A stretch of 64,000 nucleotides of DNA from Candidatus Poribacteria bacterium (GTDB taxonomy: Bacteria > Poribacteria > WGA-4E > PCPOR2b): assembly GCA_965218095.1 (NCBI GenBank), contig OZ244587.1, forward strand, positions 672,001 through 736,000, written 5' to 3'. The position numbers and the translations under genes were made by a program. Within the stretch, counting starts at the first letter, position 1. The number at the start of each line of letters is the position of its first letter. This document shows positions 15,550-54,236 of this stretch, in pieces. The notes under the pieces are model-generated. The model ran no database searches. It was given only the letters and a program-made list of their open reading frames with translations, and was not told where the DNA came from.

Positions 15550-17271
15550 ATGAAAGAACGTTTATGGTAGATCTTAGAATTAATGGTACATTTGAATAAT
15601 ATCGTGAAGTGTGGTTTCGGGGTGATATTCTCGGTATCGCTTGATATTGGCAAAATCGTGTTCAATCGGATTGTAATCTGGAGAATAAGGCGGTAGGAAC
15701 ATCAGACTCGCTCCTGAAGCCTCTATCAACTCTCGGGTCCGAGGTGTTTTGTGAAGCCGCGCATTATCAAGGATTACAACCTGTTTTGAAGTCAAACGTG
15801 GACATAACTGTTCAGCTAACCAGTCATTGAAATCTACCGCTTTGCAGCTCCCTTTGAACACCCGTGCCGCAATAAGTGTCGCTGTCCGGGTGCGTTGGCT
15901 TGAGATAAGTCCAAAGACTTTTTCCCCTTTGGGTGCATACCCATAACGTCTATAACTTTCGTCTCGAAACCCACTCTCATCGACATAAACAAAAGACTTA
16001 CCAGAGGCTTTCACTTGTGCGAGTTGCTGAAGATACGCTTGTCGTTTTTCAGCGCATTGCTCCTTATATCCGAGACTTTTTTTTCGGGTGCAACCGATAT
16101 TTTTCAGCCCATACCCGATACAAGACTTTGACACACCAAAATGAGCTGCGCGCTCGGCGTAGGTCTGGTCTGGAAAATCAGCGACATGTTTTCTCAGCGC
16201 ATCGGGGTCAAGGGTTCGCGGGCGACGGGGCCCTGGTTTCTGACGTTTGAGCGGGTCAGGCGCATTCAACCACTTATACAGCGTTGAGCGGGCGACGGAA
16301 AAACGGCGGCTCGCTTCGGTCTTGCCACCGCCAGCTACGATAAAATCTAAGACGCGTTTGCGTAAATCTAAAGAATAGGCCATAATAACTATAGGATACC
16401 AGCAATATAAGAAAATGTCTACTTATTTATAGGGTTCGCCATAATAGCAATAAAGAACGTCAGCAAGAGTGGTTTCTCGTTCTTAACGAATTCTAAGTAC
16501 CTTAAGACCGCTTGTCCTCATGCGTATGAAGACTTTCGCAATCACGGCTACACGAATGTCGCTCTAGCCGTTTATGAATTCTGGCCTGGAAGCGATTTCC
16601 TGCGTCGAAATGGAGTCCTTCCGTATATGTTTCAACAAACACATAGCGATGCACTGCAGAGAACAGATGCACAAAGCATGATCGAACATGTTTACTTGAA
16701 CTTTATTTCAGGGGAAGGTGTGCATTCGTCGCAAGAGCAGCTTCGTGGTGCTAAGGAGAGGATGTATGTTCGCTACCGTGAAACCGATTTTGTAACCGGT
16801 GCCGAACTCTCTCGTTTCGGTGTTCCAGCGAATTTCTATTTGCAACAGGGCGGGCTGCAGCAAATTCTTAGAGACCTCCATCACAAATACGGCGTCGAGC
16901 TTAGTTATGTGGACGAAGGGGGCAATACGTGGTCGAGCGCGAAATTCAGAGAGCGGTTTCCGGAGCGGAATCTTGACTCCTGCGAATATTGCGGGTTGAG
17001 TCCCGTAGATTTGCATCACTTGTTGCCTCGTGATGACCATCCAAGCCTCATCTATGACGGCAACAACGTAGTACCGTTATGCGTTAACGTACATCAGCGT
17101 ATTACAAGGAAATGTTGGACGAGTAAGGAGAAGCGTGCCTACAACGACGCGTCGAAACTCTGGTTGCGGAGTTCAGCGAGGGAATGCCGTCGAGATGTGT
17201 TCAAAAGTGTTATGGAGCAGATTCATGCGAAGGTTTATGGGAATTCCTTCATCCTGAGGCCCACAAGATAA
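15550..17271 (+). pseudogene. HNH endonuclease gene interrupted by IS630 (residual ORF 16627-17271)
   Basis: CEYCG...LHHLLP...NVVPLCVNVHQRI HNH motif. Removing IS630 and one TA restores a continuous frame from ATG 15550. Confidence 0.7.
15563..16443 (-). mobile_element. IS630-family element copy 1 (transposase 15580-16383)
   Basis: MAYSLDLR HTH start and DDE motifs YVDESG, ILDNA and PPYSPDYNPIE. Imperfect IRs TATGGCGAACCCTATAAATAA / TATGGTAGATCTTAGAATTAA, with TA at both ends. Confidence 0.92.
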
Positions 17272-21078: not shown

Positions 21079-22187
21079 GAGGGGTGTGCATAAATATAGT
21101 TGACATAATCAAGCCAAAAGGGTTTCCTATTGTTATCATAGCAAAAGGAGCCCCAATATGGTACAAAGACCAATGTTGGCTGATTATGTCACTCTTATTA
21201 TGCAACTCTTTGAGCAGTTTATGCAACACCGTATTGACAAACCAGGTGTCACACACGCAAAACCATTGACATATTCAACCACCTCGTTTATCATTTTCTT
21301 CATGTTGATGCAGTTTCACGGCATCTATGGCTTCAAAACGCAATGGCGGTGGCTAATCAATCACCCAGAAGTGTTACAAATGCTGGGGTGGCAACAGCCC
21401 CCTCATCGAACCACGATTGCACGTCGCTATAAGGCATTATATGAAGTGATAGAGGCATTTGTATTGTTTATCGGTCAGTATGCCACTGACTTGTCCCAAC
21501 AATTCAACTTGGCTCATCTGGTAGCCGACAAAAGTTTATTTAAGGCACGAGGACCCGTCTGGCATCAAACTGACCGCAAAGCAGGAAAAGTACCTAAACA
21601 TCTACGCAACCTCGACACCGATGCCACGTGGAGCAAGAGTGGTTATCATGGCTGGGTCTATGGCTACGGACTTCACATTATCTGCACACAAGGTGCGTTC
21701 CCAACACTGATAACTGTGCACCGTGCGTCGGTCTCCGAAAGTTGGGCGATAGATGCTAAAGCGTCTGAGATTCTGACACAACTTTCACCGCAGACACTCA
21801 CTGCCGATGATGCCTATACCCAAGCAGACCGTATCCGTCGTTGGGCGAAGGCACAAGTCGCTTTGATTACCCCGGCACTTAGATGGACAAAGGGACGGTT
21901 TGCCAAGGCGTATCATCGATTTATCAACCAACCCAAGCAGCGTCTCTGTTTAAGCAAACGTCGCAGTTCGGTTGAACCGTTGTTTGACTTGATTGCTAAA
22001 GTGATAGGCGCCACTCCTCAACAGAAGCAGTTACCGGTCAAGGGGTTTTTCAATGTACGCTGTTGTTTAGCTATCGGGGTGTTATCAGTGCAAGTGGCTA
22101 TGATTGCCAATGCCATATGGAAGTTACCTGCTCGCAATATCTCTCATATGGCGGCTGTTTTCCAATGAACTACTATGCACACCCCTC
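21079..22187 (+). mobile_element. Unclassified 1109-bp DDE insertion sequence copy 1 (transposase 21158-22168)
   Basis: 14-bp IR GAGGGGTGTGCATA / TATGCACACCCCTC, 8-bp TSD AATTAATA, motifs VADKS, TADDAY and RRSSVE. Near-identical copy at 47933. Confidence 0.92.
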
Positions 22188-22235
22188 AATTAATAATAGC
22201 CACTGGAATGATATTCGGCACGATCAGTGTCACTA

Positions 22236-47700: not shown

Positions 47701-47870
47701 CAGGCTCTTGAAGTGTGCATCCGAGAATCAGACAAATAGTTGGAAATGACAACCGTCGCTTCCTTACCCAGATATTGCTTTGCGAGAAATAGAGAGCGAG
47801 ACCTGTTTTTCATTGCGCCGCTACGCTCCTTCTATTTATAGTTTGTATCAAATGACCCCATGAGCTAAAC

Positions 47871-49869
47871 TATGGCGAACCCTATAAATAAGTAGACATT
47901 TTCTTATATTGCTGGTATCCTATAGTTATTATGAGGGGTGTGCATAAATATAGTTGACATAATCAAGCCAAAAGGGTTTCCTATTGTTATCATAGCAAAA
48001 GGAGCCCCAATATGGTACAAAGACCAATGTTGGCTGATTATGTCACTCTTATTATGCAACTCTTTGAGCAGTTTATGCAACACCGTATTGACAAACCAGG
48101 TGTCACACACGCAAAACCATTGACATATTCAACCACCTCGTTTATCATTTTCTTCATGTTGATGCAGTTTCACGGCATCTATGGCTTCAAAACGCAATGG
48201 CGGTGGCTAATCAATCACCCAGAAGTGTTACAAATGCTGGGGTGGCAACAGCCCCCTCATCGAACCACGATTGCACGTCGCTATAAGGCATTATATGAAG
48301 TGATAGAGGTATTTGTATTGTTTATCGGTCAGTATGCCACTGACTTGTCCCAACAATTCAACTTGGCTCATCTGGTAGCCGACAAAAGTTTATTTAAGGC
48401 ACGAGGACCCGTCTGGCATCAAACTGACCGCAAAGCAGGAAAAGTACCTAAACATCTACGCAACCTCGACACCGATGCCACGTGGAGCAAGAGTGGTTAT
48501 CATGGCTGGGTCTATGGCTACGGACTTCACATTATCTGCACACAAGGTGCGTTCCCAACACTGATAACTGTGCACCGTGCGTCGGTCTCCGAAAGTTGGG
48601 CGATAGATGCTAAAGCGTCTGAGATTCTGACACAACTTTCACCGCAGACACTCACTGCCGATGATGCCTATACCCAAGCAGACCGTATCCGTCGTTGGGC
48701 GAAGGCACAAGTCGCTTTGATTACCCCGGCACTTAGATGGACAAAGGGACGGTTTGCCAAGGCGTATCATCGATTTATCAACCAACCCAAGCAGCGTCTC
48801 TGTTTAAGCAAACGTCGCAGTTCGGTTGAACCGTTGTTTGACTTGATTGCTAAAGTGATAGGCGCCACTCCTCAACAGAAGCAGTTACCGGTCAAGGGGT
48901 TTTTCAATGTACGCTGTTGTTTAGCTATCGGGGTGTTATCAGTGCAAGTGGCTATGATTGCCAATGCCATATGGAAGTTACCTGCTCGCAATATCTCTCA
49001 TATGGCGGCTGTTTTCCAATGAACTACTATGCACACCCCTCAGTTATTATGGCCTATTCTTTAGATTTACGCAAACGCGTCTTAGATTTTATCGCAGCTG
49101 GCGGTGGCAAGACCGAAGCGAGCCGCCGTTTTTCCGTCGCCCGCTCAACGCTGTATAAGTGGTTGAATGCGCCTGACCCGCTCAAACGTCAGAAACCAGG
49201 GCCCCGTCGCCCGCGAACCCTTGACCCCGATGCGCTGAGAAAACATGTCGCTGATTTTCCAGACCAGACCTACGCCGAGCGCGCAGCTCATTTTGGTGTG
49301 TCAAAGTCTTGTATCGGGTATGGGCTGAAAAATATCGGTTGCACCCGAAAAAAAAGTCTCGGATATAAGGAGCAATGCGCTGAAAAACGACAAGCGTATC
49401 TTCAGCAACTCGCACAAGTGAAAGCCTCTGGTAAGTCTTTTGTTTATGTCGATGAGAGTGGGTTTCGAGACGAAAGTTATAGACGTTATGGGTATGCACC
49501 CAAAGGGGAAAAAGTCTTTGGACTTATCTCAAGCCAACGCACCCGGACAGCGACACTTATTGCGGCACGGGTGTTCAAAGGGAGCTGCAAAGCGGTAGAT
49601 TTCAATGACTGGTTAGCTGAACAGTTATGTCCACGTTTGACTTCAAAACAGGTTGTAATCCTTGATAATGCGCGGCTTCACAAAACACCTCGGACCCGAG
49701 AGTTGATAGAGGCTTCAGGAGCGAGTCTGATGTTCCTACCGCCTTATTCTCCAGATTACAATCCGATTGAACACGATTTTGCCAATATCAAGCGATACCG
49801 AGAATATCACCCCGAAACCACACTTCACGATATTATTCAAATGTACCATTAATTCTAAGATCTACCATA
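47871..49869 (+). mobile_element. IS630-family element copy 2 (transposase 49049-49852), interrupted by the 1109-bp IS
   Basis: Same ends and transposase as 15563-16443 (one visible V/A difference). TA at both ends. Confidence 0.92.
47933..49041 (+). mobile_element. Unclassified 1109-bp DDE insertion sequence copy 2 (transposase 48012-49022)
   Basis: Same IRs as copy 1, 9-bp TSD AGTTATTAT, one visible A/V difference from copy 1. Confidence 0.92.
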
Positions 49870-49917
49870 AAAGGAGATGGTATTGCCATCAACTACAATC
49901 CACTCATGGAGGTCAAT

Positions 49918-50718
49918 ATGAAACCACAAAGCAATACAGCCTACGGTATCAACCGTCTACAATCAAAGACCGCAAGGGCAGCCATCATTCAGAAGATTTC
50001 ATCAGACTTTAATCTAATGCCACTGATTGCCGAAGCCTACTATAAACAGATTGCTTCCTACTTTGCTCAACATGCCGAAATTGAACTCACGTCAGGCCAA
50101 ATCTGCTATGAGGCAGTCGCAGCCGATGAACCGGCAGGCAAACATATCGCGTTAGCGAAAAAAGTCTCATGTCAACTCACTCTCAATGATGTCCAAACTG
50201 ACCTTGAGATGTTAGCCGATTATGGGCTTTCTGGACTCAGACGCCATCGAATTCTCCGATTAACCAAACAAGCCTATGACCAAGATGCCCTGCTCAGCTA
50301 TGAAGATTTAGCGGTGCTATTAACCACCAGTCCAGCGACCGTCAAGCGCGACATTCGACAGTTGAAACAGGACGGTTACTTTGTTATGACTCGCGGTGCC
50401 AAACATGACATGGGGCCTGGCATCTCTCATAAGACTCAGATTCTGGAATTGTACTTCAAAGGGTATCAGTTCACTGAAATTGAGCAAAAGACTAATCATA
50501 CCCAACGAGCGGTCTGGCGATACTTGCGCGATTTCACACAGGTAGCAAGCCTCCATCATCAAGGCTTTCCAAAGGGACAGATACGGCTCATTACGCATCT
50601 ATCGGACCGACTAATTCGGGAGTATCTCTTGCTATATGATGAGTACCAACAAACACAACGAATGACTCAACTCCTTCACCCGGAACCGGTTGATGCGGAA
50701 AAGGGGAACCCCTCATGA
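49918..50718 (+). CDS. DUF1670-like HTH protein (ORF A, intact)
   Basis: GGAGG RBS. RILRLTKQAYDQDALLSYEDLAVLLTTSPATVKRDI...TRG..HDMGPGISHK..I...HT..AV.RY..DF. Confidence 0.75.
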   Translation: MKPQSNTAYGINRLQSKTARAAIIQKISSDFNLMPLIAEAYYKQIASYFAQHAEIELTSGQICYEAVAADEPAGKHIALAKKVSCQLTLNDVQTDLEMLADYGLSGLRRHRILRLTKQAYDQDALLSYEDLAVLLTTSPATVKRDIRQLKQDGYFVMTRGAKHDMGPGISHKTQILELYFKGYQFTEIEQKTNHTQRAVWRYLRDFTQVASLHHQGFPKGQIRLITHLSDRLIREYLLLYDEYQQTQRMTQLLHPEPVDAEKGNPS

Positions 50719-51607
50719 GTAAACCCTTGACTCGAACCGAAGTCAACGAGAAGAAATTCAGACGCCTCAATGATAAATCCCTGCAATAGCTACTAATTCA
50801 TCGCTTTATCAATTCTTACGGTTATGACAAAGGAGAAGTCACGGCGGCTGTCATTGTTGATGACATTGTCAAAACCATTGAAGGCTATTTCTTGATTGCC
50901 CTCCCCCTTGAGAAACTCGCCACAGGAGACCAAATCCCTAATCAGCGAATGCTCAGTTATGGGCAATTGGTCTGGATGGCTGTGCCGATTGATGAATACC
51001 CACAAAAAGGGAAGTCAATCGTCAAAACCGCTATGAAGCCGGTTGTTCTGACCTACCTCGCTTCTGAGGATATTGAATCCTTTCGCAACGGTTTTACTTC
51101 CCGGCAACTCAGAATCAATTGATTAGTCCGATGGTGTTATCAAGCCTATGACCAAGGCGCATTATTGACCCAACTCGACCTAGCTGTGTTGCTCAATATC
51201 TGTGATGCCATCGTCAGCGACTATGTCAATGAGTGGCAAAAAAATAGTGGAAAACTCTTGCCCACCCGGGGCAATATCCATGATTTATCGGGAGCGATTA
51301 CCCACAAGAAAGAGATTGTTACCCTCTATCTCCAAGGGCATCTGCTGCCAAAACCAGCCACTCTAAAGAAGCGGTTGACCGATACATTCGCGATTATGAG
51401 TCCGTTAAGACGGTTCGTGCCGCTACGGAGGATATTGACAAAATCTCTCAGATTACCCGGCTCTCCAAACGCGTCATCTCTCAATATCTTGACCTGATTC
51501 CTCAACATTCGCTTGATGACATGGACGCTAACTTAGCAACCGAATCAGAAAGCTGTAAAGATGCCAACACCCTGTTCCGTTCCGAACCTACAGGAGACCC
51601 CCAATGA
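50715..51607 (+). pseudogene. DUF1670-like protein (ORF B), disrupted
   Basis: ATGA overlap with ORF A. QAYDQGALLTQLDLAVLL...PTRGNIHDL...THK...HSKEAVDRYIRDY. TAG 50787, TGA 51120 and a frameshift near 51345. Confidence 0.75.
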
Positions 51608-51674
51608 TAAAATCGGACAAACGTTGCTTAGCGTTTTGCCCAACAAAACATCGTAATTTTACTTGAAGATTGGT

Positions 51675-51703
51675 TTGACACCCGCTATCTTTTTTGCTAT
51701 ACT
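51675..51703 (+). promoter_or_regulatory. Strong sigma70 promoter pointing to the right end of the DUF1670 element
   Basis: TTGACA-17 nt-TATACT with an extended -10 TG. Confidence 0.75.
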
Positions 51704-51707
51704 TCGT

Positions 51708-51834
51708 TACGCTTATATCCAAGCGTATCCATTTCTCGAAGGAGATGCGAGTTCACCCAATCCAACCCGCTCATGGGTGATGGCTGGAAGGCAATAGACA
51801 TCAGCATTCCAACCATCATCTGGTCATTTGATAC
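51708..51834 (+). ncRNA. Candidate structured ncRNA or 5' leader at the element right end
   Basis: Consecutive hairpins immediately after the promoter: 51708-51727, 51730-51747, 51753-51780 and the alternative 51776-51820. Confidence 0.45.
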
Positions 51835-54236
51835 TATTTCAGAATCAGCATTTTCTGTGTCGCAACAAAATCACCAGCTTTGAGTACATAAAAGTACACG
51901 CCGCTGGCAGCGTGCTCTCCCAATTGAGTACGTCCGTCCCAATAGGCCGCTCTTTCTTTGGTGATGTACTGTCCCGGTGGTTTCAGACCGAGCTCTAAAG
52001 TGCGCACCAACTGCCCCGCCATATTGTAAATCTCAATCAATACGGAGGAACCCTCCGCCAACTCGTAAGGCATCCAAACGTCCGGATTGAACGGATTCGG
52101 GTAACTTTGTAGCAACCGAGTACGGATTGGGGCCGCCGGAATATTCATCTCAGGCTTGAAGGTGGGGGTAAAGCCATTCAGTCCGATGCTCGGTGTGCCC
52201 ATGATGCCAAGCGCGTTCACAGGCACAACGGCGTAATAGTAGGTGACACTCTGTGGATTAAATGAGGGACTGCTTAGATCGAATTGCGCCCGGTCCAGAT
52301 CGACATCTTGAAATATCGTTGTGTCTTCAAAGCGGGTATCCGTCGCGTTGACACGCCTGACAATGTTGATGTCGCTGTCAGGGATGCCGTTCTCATCACG
52401 GTCTGCGGCATTCAAAACCTCCGCCGCGCTCTGGAGTGGCTGCGGGTCGTCGGTATTGATGAACGCGGCGTGCCGCTTGCGGACAATAACTATCTCACGA
52501 ATATCTGTCAGATCTTCAAGCTCCCATTGTACAAGCACGCCGTTGTTGCCTTCCGAAACAGTCGGCGTTGAGAGCTTCCCAGCCGGTGGACGACCGGCCA
52601 TATAGCTCACAGAACCACCGAAATAGCCGCCACCGGGGATAACGACATGTTCGATATCCGGGCGGACGTTGATTAGGATCAGCGTAATCTTCTCAATCTC
52701 GCCCCCAAAATCTTTGAACGTGATCTGCGCTTCCTGAGAACGATGATAAGTGAACGCCTCTCGAACTTCAGTTATCCCATCGCGTCTTTCAACGATAAAC
52801 TTCGCGCCCCAACCGCGCAAACCGGTAATATCGTGCCGATCCAATTCCTGCTGAATTGCATTGCGATCCGCGAGGCTGAGAGCATCTATGTCAATCGGGG
52901 CGAGGTCTGTGCCATCAACCTTAACCGCGAATTCCTTCATCACAACACCAAGCGCAGGTTCAAAGACAATATAGCGAGCCGAGAAGGGTTCTGGCATCGC
53001 CTCTGAATCAAAATCAACGCGGACGGGATAGGCGTTATGCACATCAGTCGGATGAATGGCGACCGGCGGGAAACGGTGCCCGTTGAAGTAGTGCTGCTTG
53101 TCATCACGGTCATCAGTAAAGTAATTCCACTCGGTGAAGGTCTTAAACACCTCAACAAGCGTTGTACCGTGATCTGTGAACACCTGCGAAAAGTTACCGT
53201 ATTCGCGGAAGCTGCCTTCTGTTGTATTTCCATAAAACTGCCTGATGATATCGACATCAAATCGCTCCGCCATATAAAGCGCCCAGATCACAGCCGCGTA
53301 CTCGTGCAAACCAACGCGGCTATCAAGGGCAATGTCAGGCTGACGCAAAAAAATGTCAAGCTGTCTGGCATAGTAGTTATACGCATCGGTCTCACCAATC
53401 TCATCGGGGTCTGGGATATCGTCGAGATCGTCAATCCGTCCGCCGTCATATACCTTCGACTCAATCCATGTGGCAGAGGCTTCCATAAACCATGTTGGCA
53501 TTCGCGCATTATAGCCAAACTGAACGCCGTGGATGAACTCATGGGCGCACGTCGTTTCAATGAATCGGATGCCTTCAGATCTTCCGAAAAAGTCATATAT
53601 ACGGGAATTGATCGCGAAATAGGGGCCAAAGGTCGCAACGGTTGATAACACCCGCCCATTGTACCAGTCTACTGTTGTGAAGCCAAGCGCAGGAAACATG
53701 AACAGATATACGTCGTATTTATGATTGCCACCATTTTCAGCCACCCAAAAATCGTCAAACGGCTGCTTAAAGCCCATCAGATCCACTTCAACATGGAAAG
53801 AGCGCTCCATCGCCTCCGCACAAATATCGACGAAATCCGGGACGCCGTTCATCGGATTGAGATCTTCAAGCGGCGGTGCATTGAGGCCGACAGTGGTATA
53901 GTGGAACCGAAAGTGCGGTGTGTCAAACTTCTTGGGCAGGTAAACAGAACCGTAGGCGCTGCCGGGCAGCCCCGGGCGCAGGAAAATCCCCTGAAACTCC
54001 CGTTGATAGATCGCTGGAAGGTGATTCCAGTTTCTGGCGAGGATATTGAAGCTGTCCGTAAAGCACTTCTCAATTTCGCTGGGCGCGTAACTCGGTTTGA
54101 GGTTAATATACTTTCGGACAGTCCGAATTGCGCTATGCAGTTCCGGATCGGGGGGGAGTGCGTCAACAAATAAGGGCGTAAAGACGAAAAATCCGACGGT
54201 CAATAAAATAAATAAGCACAATCTCAAGCGGTTCAC
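51834..54236 (-). CDS. Secreted zinc metalloprotease (MXAN_6640-like) with C-terminal FlgD/T9SS-like sorting domain
   Basis: Signal peptide, AHEFIHGVQFGY...WFMEASATW and C-terminal QSYPNPFNP...YWDGR..GE..ASGVYFY...KMLILK. Confidence 0.85.
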   Translation of the reverse strand: MNRLRLCLFILLTVGFFVFTPLFVDALPPDPELHSAIRTVRKYINLKPSYAPSEIEKCFTDSFNILARNWNHLPAIYQREFQGIFLRPGLPGSAYGSVYLPKKFDTPHFRFHYTTVGLNAPPLEDLNPMNGVPDFVDICAEAMERSFHVEVDLMGFKQPFDDFWVAENGGNHKYDVYLFMFPALGFTTVDWYNGRVLSTVATFGPYFAINSRIYDFFGRSEGIRFIETTCAHEFIHGVQFGYNARMPTWFMEASATWIESKVYDGGRIDDLDDIPDPDEIGETDAYNYYARQLDIFLRQPDIALDSRVGLHEYAAVIWALYMAERFDVDIIRQFYGNTTEGSFREYGNFSQVFTDHGTTLVEVFKTFTEWNYFTDDRDDKQHYFNGHRFPPVAIHPTDVHNAYPVRVDFDSEAMPEPFSARYIVFEPALGVVMKEFAVKVDGTDLAPIDIDALSLADRNAIQQELDRHDITGLRGWGAKFIVERRDGITEVREAFTYHRSQEAQITFKDFGGEIEKITLILINVRPDIEHVVIPGGGYFGGSVSYMAGRPPAGKLSTPTVSEGNNGVLVQWELEDLTDIREIVIVRKRHAAFINTDDPQPLQSAAEVLNAADRDENGIPDSDINIVRRVNATDTRFEDTTIFQDVDLDRAQFDLSSPSFNPQSVTYYYAVVPVNALGIMGTPSIGLNGFTPTFKPEMNIPAAPIRTRLLQSYPNPFNPDVWMPYELAEGSSVLIEIYNMAGQLVRTLELGLKPPGQYITKERAAYWDGRTQLGEHAASGVYFYVLKAGDFVATQKMLILK

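Follow-up and report, generated by a model that had tools for sequence, protein, structure and literature searches.

A stretch of 64,000 nucleotides from the genome of a Candidatus Poribacteria bacterium (G000; 6.35 Mb, one contig), hereafter the window, was analysed around an element that interrupts the end of a metalloprotease gene. The window holds a dead, interrupted copy of an autonomous insertion sequence (IS)-like transposable element, whose only genes are an overlapping pair encoding DUF1670 proteins. Coordinates given without a genome name are window positions, and features lie on the plus strand unless stated otherwise.

The element occupies 47838-51839, including two nested ISs. Removal of both ISs leaves an outer unit of 28 bp (47845-47872) plus 1965 bp (49870-51834), 1993 bp in all, which differs from an uninterrupted copy in the same genome (copy B) at 2 of 1993 positions (BLAST). 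This unit is bounded by a pair of 19-nt inverted repeats with complementarity of 17/19 (89%): the left repeat (IRL) at 47845-47863, which is kept in 39 aligned left ends, and the right repeat (IRR) at 51816-51834, which also follows from the comparison with copy B. An initial annotation of the window had described the same repeats and an element of about 1993 bp. The remainder does equal copy B, but the true termini lie further out, at the end of 7 bp beyond IRL (ATAGTTT, 47838-47844) and of 5 bp beyond IRR (TATTT, 51835-51839), giving a full length of 2005 bp. Between the ends, the first open reading frame (ORF1, 49906-50718) encodes an intact DUF1670 protein of 270 aa, and its paralogue ORF2 (50715-51608), which overlaps the ORF1 stop in an ATGA, is a pseudogene in the window.

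The target gene (51834-54236, minus strand) encodes an 800-aa MXAN_6640-type HExxH metalloprotease (NCBIfam NF045524 at 1.3e-37, with a Pfam FlgD_ig match as well) that ends in ...QKMLILK-stop. Its C-terminal domain (CTD), a type A sorting domain of the type IX secretion system (T9SS), matches TIGR04183 at 30.4 bits against a cut-off of 23, over residues 712-798 of 800. The Lys and stop codons that this gene now uses are borne by the element, at 51834-51839: on the minus strand, the right terminus gives AAA-TA and the final base of IRR gives the third base of the replacement TAG. The native Lys-stop (AAA TAG on the minus strand; CTATTT as written), assigned from flank variation and from an empty orthologous site, now stands at the far side of the element, at 47832-47837.

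The larger of the nested ISs is an IS630-family element at 47873-49867 (47873-49869 with the duplicated TA at 49868-49869). Its ORF matches DDE_3 (6e-29), HTH_Tnp_IS630 (2.9e-25) and NCBIfam transpos_IS630 (4.9e-36), and copy B has a single TA at the insertion point. It carries the second IS (47932-49042), which is bounded by 15-bp perfect inverted repeats and measures 1111 bp, not the 1109 bp first proposed. The 336-aa DDE_Tnp_1-like ORF of the second IS gave weak family matches (DDE_Tnp_1 at 7e-07; an IS982 model at 36 bits, where the cut-off is 130). BLAST revealed seven copies of the IS630-family element in the genome at 99.5-100% identity, another one being at 15561-16391 of the window (G000 687561-688391). 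For the 1111-bp IS, which is also present at 21079-22188 (G000 693079-694188), 45 BLAST rows of 1110-1111 bp were obtained; since all are at 99.5-100% identity, they suggest a very recent burst in this genome. A third IS, of 851 bp (G000:C1:5725475-5726325), lies outside the window, in a further copy of the DUF1670 element, copy D. It has terminal inverted repeats and a 236-aa open frame, gives 159 BLAST rows in the genome at ~96-98% identity, and its insertion accompanies the loss of ~298 bp of the DUF1670 element.

Copies and empty sites

BLAST analysis of G000 revealed four copies of the element at 99.8-100% identity: the window copy, the uninterrupted copy B, one split by the 1111-bp IS, and one with the 851-bp IS and a deletion. 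A fifth CTD gene (..TRKMVILK-stop) has at its Lys-stop a solo 23-bp right end (G000:C1:665860-665882), which lies 6.1 kb upstream of where the window begins and is followed by unrelated sequence; this solo end is the remnant of an older insertion. The four copies and the solo end each stand directly after AAATA, at the end of a different ..KM[VL]ILK-stop gene, and they occupy 5 of the 44 ORF ends in the genome that carry a motif of this type. In a set of 41 related genomes, G000 included, the element was matched in 10, with five mutually identical copies in G018 and four in G010. A tblastn search against a plasmid collection gave no match.

Empty sites were recovered in two ways. In G020, the ortholog of a gene occupied in G018 lacks the element, and its end, ...GTC AAG TAG, is followed directly by the sequence found beyond the element in G018. 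In addition, runs X1 and X3, from two studies, contain contigs that lack exactly 2005 bp at copy B (positions 383 to 2389 of its locus, L027). Patterns made by joining the flanks of the 1993-bp model gave no convincing match in the same genome, because the conserved flank bases are part of the element. These three independent checks concur on the element ends. The element shows the generic features of an IS, with several near-identical copies at separate loci, well-defined termini and an empty counterpart of an occupied site. It is mobile: it transposes.

Two further features of these contigs were observed. Relative to the expectation for precise absence, the empty-site contigs of X1 and X3 show an apparent one-base difference directly after the stop codon, which could be a strain single-nucleotide polymorphism or a footprint. 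Separately, contigs in X3, X4 and X5 join position 408 of L027 to position 2309 with 33 other letters between. The joined pieces, ~60 nt of right end and 66 nt of left end, look like a miniature of ~140 bp resembling a miniature inverted-repeat transposable element; an exact-pattern search for it in the 41 related genomes found none.

Element ends and target choice

The ends were then examined across a species-genome collection, as the initial annotation had suggested for tandem DUF1670 loci. The best 80 loci, hosted by Candidatus Poribacteria metagenome-assembled genomes (one genome gives 15 of the 80), contained both repeat cores in 77 cases. Together with the four G000 copies these made 81 sites, and dropping L084, whose contig ends 2 nt past the element, left 80 unique sites with full flanks. 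At all 80, the left repeat is immediately preceded by ATAGTTT and the right repeat immediately followed by TATTT. The six bases to the left of ATAGTTT vary by site and are the reverse complement of a Lys codon (AAR) plus TAG, TAA or TGA, and the sequence to the right of the element is the reverse complement of ...T-R-K-M-(L/V)-I-x. Because the left hexamer reads Lys-stop and the right flank reads the preceding motif, the insertion point in T9SS sorting-domain genes falls after the penultimate codon and before the terminal Lys codon. Strict CTD Lys-stop sites of this kind account for 60/80, and at two further sites the CTD motif is present with an atypical left hexamer.

At CTD genes the insertion always has one orientation, with the element ORFs antisense to the target gene. 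The right end, whose reverse complement reads AAA-TAG, substitutes for the displaced Lys-stop and leaves the target protein unchanged. The survival of the host gene had been anticipated, by a different route: joining the flanks was thought to restore a TAA stop, converted to TAG by the terminal base of the element. The protein is indeed preserved, but by an element-borne Lys-stop, and the ATAGTTT and TATTT used in that join are element bases at every site.

A second lineage, accounting for 13/80 sites, targets a 30-bp palindromic repeat and inserts in its loop; the other 7 sites fall outside both groups. In G010, 70 unoccupied matches to this repeat were found, the most frequent form being an exact join of the left and right flanks. 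The repeat itself has a 13-bp stem and a T-rich loop, is also matched 13 times in G012 and 5 times in G008, and often occurs in arrays with a spacing of ~159-193 bp (e.g. G010:C1 3456489-3457155 and 1894819-1897594).

The right junction has TT in 80/80 sites, and the left junction ends in T in 80/80, with another T before it in 79/80. With the flanking TT set apart, the element starts with ATAG and ends with CTAT, and the repeats become terminal, reading ATAG, a 4-bp insert TTTG and TATCAAATGACC... on the left and ...GGTCATTTGATACTAT on the right. The hexamer at the target, CTAYTT, is similar to CTATTT, the right terminus of the element. A classical target duplication was considered and rejected, as the left hexamer varies among the Poribacteria sites while the right TATTT is constant. 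In agreement with the initial annotation, the 80 sites show no target duplication apart from the TT that both sides share, and this TT is equally compatible with a 2-bp duplication and with a crossover core of 2 bp. Insertion is base-precise and both site- and orientation-specific.

The target side at CTD genes is a paralogous conserved coding motif, which would also suit a regulator gene pair that is not a transposon and has reached paralogous gene ends through homologous recombination or homing. We consider such a history barely credible. The other flank is unrelated between sites, so the two-sided homology it requires is missing; the junctions are base-exact in 80/80 sites; and in a distant subfamily with 37% identity, described below, the flanks are unrelated on both sides.

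In one sub-lineage (left ends L078-L138; alignment A7, columns ~24-55), the left end is longer by 18 nt. The extra stretch makes two direct copies of a ATGAGTTAnnCTAA-like motif just inside the left repeat, and these paired motifs may be additional protein-binding sites.

The DUF1670 pair and the mechanism of movement

Both ORFs are full-length members of Pfam DUF1670 (PF07900), a family without functional annotation that is now tied to mobile DNA. ORF1 matches the family at 212.2 bits (E 7.9e-63; gathering score 25 bits) and the intact ORF2 of a relative at 201.1 bits (2e-59), and the fragments of the window ORF2 score 31.5 and 67.5 bits. ORF1 and the intact ORF2 of a relative share 36% identity over 186 aa. 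The overlapping paralogous pair described initially is confirmed, but ORF2 is inactivated in the window by TAG at 50787-50789, TGA at 51120-51122 and a single frameshift near 51340-51352. Relatives have an intact ORF2 (285-302 aa).

Searches for a known recombinase gave negative results, as in the initial annotation. No DDE, HUH, tyrosine or serine recombinase domain was found in ORF1 or an intact ORF2 with Pfam, nor in ORF1 with NCBIfam, and no NCBIfam transposase model matches ORF1. DDE families were absent at E <= 0.01 from ORF1 and the intact ORF2 of a relative, and no NCBIfam IS630 model matched ORF1. Neither a DEDD (RuvC-like) nor a Y1/Y2 HUH transposase was matched in Pfam or NCBIfam, and a DEDD domain was not among the fold matches listed. 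The search for a resolvase-type catalytic domain returned helix-turn-helix (HTH) families only. For the phage-integrase fold of tyrosine recombinases, with its R-K-H-R-H/W-Y residues, sequence searches (Pfam, PDB profile) gave no match and the list of fold matches has no entry; the ORFs do contain conserved R, H, K and Y.

Alignment of 84 ORF1-type and 24 ORF2-type sequences revealed conservation of R118, Q126, D134, R163-G164, H167-D168, H175-K176, H198, R205-Y206 and Y240 (ORF1 numbering). The TRG..HD...HK and H...RY residues highlighted earlier are thus present in both paralogues. An AlphaFold model of ORF1 from an 84-row alignment (predicted local distance difference test, pLDDT, 87.9) has a helical hairpin and a beta-hairpin at residues ~10-100, followed by a long helix, a winged HTH at 107-168 (NiaR- and BirA-like chains at Z 6.3-6.6), and, at 173-259, an HTH region like that of TrpR or Mor (Z 6.0-6.7). 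Matches in the ESM Atlas were to HTH-type clusters only, all below 0.9. Prediction of an ORF1-ORF2 complex gave a score of 0.22 against a mark of 0.32, which counts neither for nor against such a complex.

The DUF1670 family extends well beyond this element. ORF1 has 817 homologues at E <= 0.001 in a word-indexed search, many of them on contigs of ~2 kb, and an exhaustive search gave 1227 clusters at 50% identity. According to their source names, members come from Poribacteria, Gemmatimonadota, Omnitrophota, Euryarchaeota and Methanosarcinales. Some are fusions, either of two units (~500-550 aa) or of three (~930-950 aa), in which Pfam shows only DUF1670 and HTH families. The NCBI name of the relatives is 'DUF1670 domain-containing protein', and some JGI records read 'biotin operon repressor'.

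The subfamily with 37% identity was analysed at 80 metagenome loci (41 unique sites) and likewise consists of sharp-ended, multi-copy, two-gene elements. Its ORF1 of 289 aa is followed, with a 4-nt overlap, by an ORF2 of 251-257 aa, and the homology block of 1672-1680 bp runs from 16 bp before ORF1 to ~25 bp after ORF2. The subfamily has its own conserved sharp ends, and the flanks are unrelated at the 41 unique sites. Direct repeats of >=4 bp were found in 0/41 sites, and the two bases before the left TT are only A or T, like the right end ATTT. These two distant branches share one design: two DUF1670 genes, sharp asymmetric inverted ends, TTs at the junctions, and nothing else.

We consider it somewhat better than an even chance that the element is an autonomous IS-like element moved by its own DUF1670 pair, which would then also supply the catalysis. 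Its movement may rely on a previously undescribed type of enzyme. In the mechanism we envisage, the two DUF1670 proteins would form a hetero-oligomer, whose winged-HTH and HTH modules would bind both the two slightly different ends and the target that mimics the right end (CTAYTT vs CTATTT). Strand exchange would take place at the TT dinucleotide, either by a cut staggered by 2 bp or in a crossover core of 2 bp, with an excised circle as the probable intermediate. In the circle, transcription from the conserved outward-facing promoter close to the right end would cross the junction and enter ORF1 (and ORF2). Candidate catalytic residues are R163-G164, H167-D168, H175-K176, H198, R205-Y206 and Y240, the invariant polar set of both paralogues.

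The stronger proposal, that DUF1670 is a new class of transposase or site-specific recombinase built entirely of HTH and winged-HTH modules and cutting and rejoining DNA at a TT core, we advance tentatively, at slightly under even odds. It would act as a hetero-oligomer or as the fused two- and three-unit proteins, using the R163/H167-D168/H175-K176/H198/R205-Y206/Y240 set, perhaps with a tyrosine nucleophile. Topoisomerase V provides a precedent for a catalytic tyrosine inside an HTH fold.

Several observations weigh against catalysis by the DUF1670 pair or against its novelty. The Foldseek search suggested by the initial annotation gave no PDB match at E <= 0.001. The best VIA-align match reached Z 6.7, with all matches being HTH or winged-HTH modules, and a PDB profile search returned regulators only (best E 0.04). 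The N-terminal part alone gave a poor model (pLDDT 63.7), with uninformative matches, only to helical-hairpin dimerisation domains at Z <= 5.6. By our reading of the motifs, several and perhaps most of the conserved residues lie where HTH recognition helices typically carry such residues, and they may serve a structural or DNA-contacting role. All three ORF2 lesions recur in copy B, and the in-frame TGA is found in all four G000 copies. Because lesions are shared by copies at different genes, the claim that both proteins are needed is weakened; the element may do without ORF2, a copy since lost may have provided ORF2 in trans, or the copies may have been homogenised. No circle or tandem junction was found among the assembled contigs, a data type unable to show rare forms. 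As to novelty, one JGI record labels a distant member 'transposase', and an entry may exist among the unclassified elements of ISfinder.

The main rival is a model in which the DUF1670 proteins are architectural factors that recognise the ends and the target, with the breakage and joining of DNA left to a recruited host enzyme, such as a Xer-type or other tyrosine recombinase, a topoisomerase, or the transposase of another resident IS. We hold this to be unlikely, though a serious contender. It would explain why only DNA-binding and dimerisation folds were recovered and how an ORF2-defective element still stands at four copies in the genome, and the genome has many other ISs that could act in trans (45 rows of the 1111-bp IS, 7 copies of the IS630-family element and 159 rows of the 851-bp IS). 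However, the two-gene-only design recurs at 37% identity, and members occur, by source names, in bacteria and archaea, so that the host partner would need to be near-universal. The inverted-repeat core occurs nowhere else in the genome beyond the element's own copies, so no larger autonomous element shares these ends. Finally, the invariant polar residues are common to both paralogues and to subfamilies with different ends, which is more than sequence-specific binding requires.

A near-consensus sigma-70-type promoter at 51675-51703 faces the right end, ~130 nt away. It consists of TTGACA, a 17-nt spacer and TATACT with a TG (11/12 matches), and its -10 region is kept in eight distinct elements of relatives. 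No comparable promoter precedes ORF1, except for a -10-like TATAGT at the left junction (in copy B, ATAGTTT plus the preceding T). With conserved blocks downstream, this strong conserved promoter could produce a noncoding RNA (ncRNA) of ~130 nt that guides insertion by pairing with target and donor, in the style of the IS110/IS1111 bridge or seek RNAs, and the specific sites, the missing duplication and the 2-nt shared core resemble IS110 in turn. We nevertheless judge RNA guidance very improbable. RNAalifold on 45 right ends gave no consensus structure (3 pairs, -0.2 kcal/mol), a proposed right-end hairpin showed two-sided changes in 0/12 pairs, and Rfam returned nothing at E <= 0.5. The right-end sequence does not track the target, because L075 shares its right-end sequence with the palindrome-targeting lineage, yet sits at a CTD gene. 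In the 37% subfamily, the ~25 bp after ORF2 are too short for such an RNA.

Known systems and significance of the family

The initial annotation had proposed an uncatalogued IS-like element carrying only a DUF1670 pair, and the multi-copy element described here bears this out within Pfam, NCBIfam and the literature searched, where we could not find the family catalogued as a transposase. The literature searched contained no mention of 'DUF1670' or 'PF07900', and searches on Poribacteria insertion sequences, on ISNCY in Methanosarcina and on elements without a recognizable transposase gave nothing relevant by title.

The element shares individual features with several known groups. Like IS630/Tc1-mariner elements, it has short terminal inverted repeats, one and the same dinucleotide on either side (TA there, TT here) and paired HTH modules. 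These elements, however, carry a single DDE_3 transposase, whereas the DUF1670 ORFs are without DDE_3, and they insert at any TA, whereas a long specific site flanked by TT is used here. The likeness to IS110/IS1111 lies in oriented insertion into repeats or specific sequences without duplication, in subterminal inverted repeats, in a short core common to donor and target, and in a circle with a junction-crossing promoter, which for the DUF1670 element is only expected. The DEDD/RuvC-like domain of that group was not found here, and a structured ncRNA is unsupported. In the IS200/IS605 and IS91 groups, as here, the ends are asymmetric and insertion occurs without duplication 3' of a short sequence like the element's own 3' end (an AYTT flank and ATTT in the present case). 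Unlike them, the DUF1670 element has no Y1/Y2/HUH domain and has true terminal inverted repeats, and its end hairpin is without covariation support.

Target choice recalls Tn7 and the ISs that target repetitive extragenic palindromic (REP) sequences, which use 'safe' conserved sites that keep the product of the neighbouring gene intact, or palindromic repeats; one study (PMC1525189), by its title, reportedly concerns IS elements targeting REP sequences. Tn7 inserts downstream of glmS and relies on five proteins, including a DDE transposase. The DUF1670 element differs in that its insertion point lies within the coding sequence, one codon short of the stop, and in that it rewrites both that codon and the stop.

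If DUF1670 catalysis is true, the family would be a transposase class beyond the DDE, DEDD, HUH, serine, tyrosine and Cas1 enzymes, and a function would be assigned to a DUF of ~1200 clusters in bacteria and archaea. Compact, two-protein, base-precise and sequence-specific insertion is also of interest for genome engineering. The elements account for many metagenome contigs of 1.7-2.5 kb, whose genes should be annotated as mobile DNA and not as regulators. The targeting is notable in itself, since it is the DNA encoding the ...RKM(L/V)IxK C-terminal motif of T9SS sorting domains that is recognised. Because a replacement Lys-stop is supplied, dozens of paralogous 'safe' sites per genome can be colonised without change to the protein. 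If the proposal of a new recombinase class holds, DUF1670 elements would constitute a widespread, unrecognised IS superfamily, one branch of which would have evolved insertion one codon ahead of the stop of T9SS cargo genes, with rewriting of that codon and the stop.

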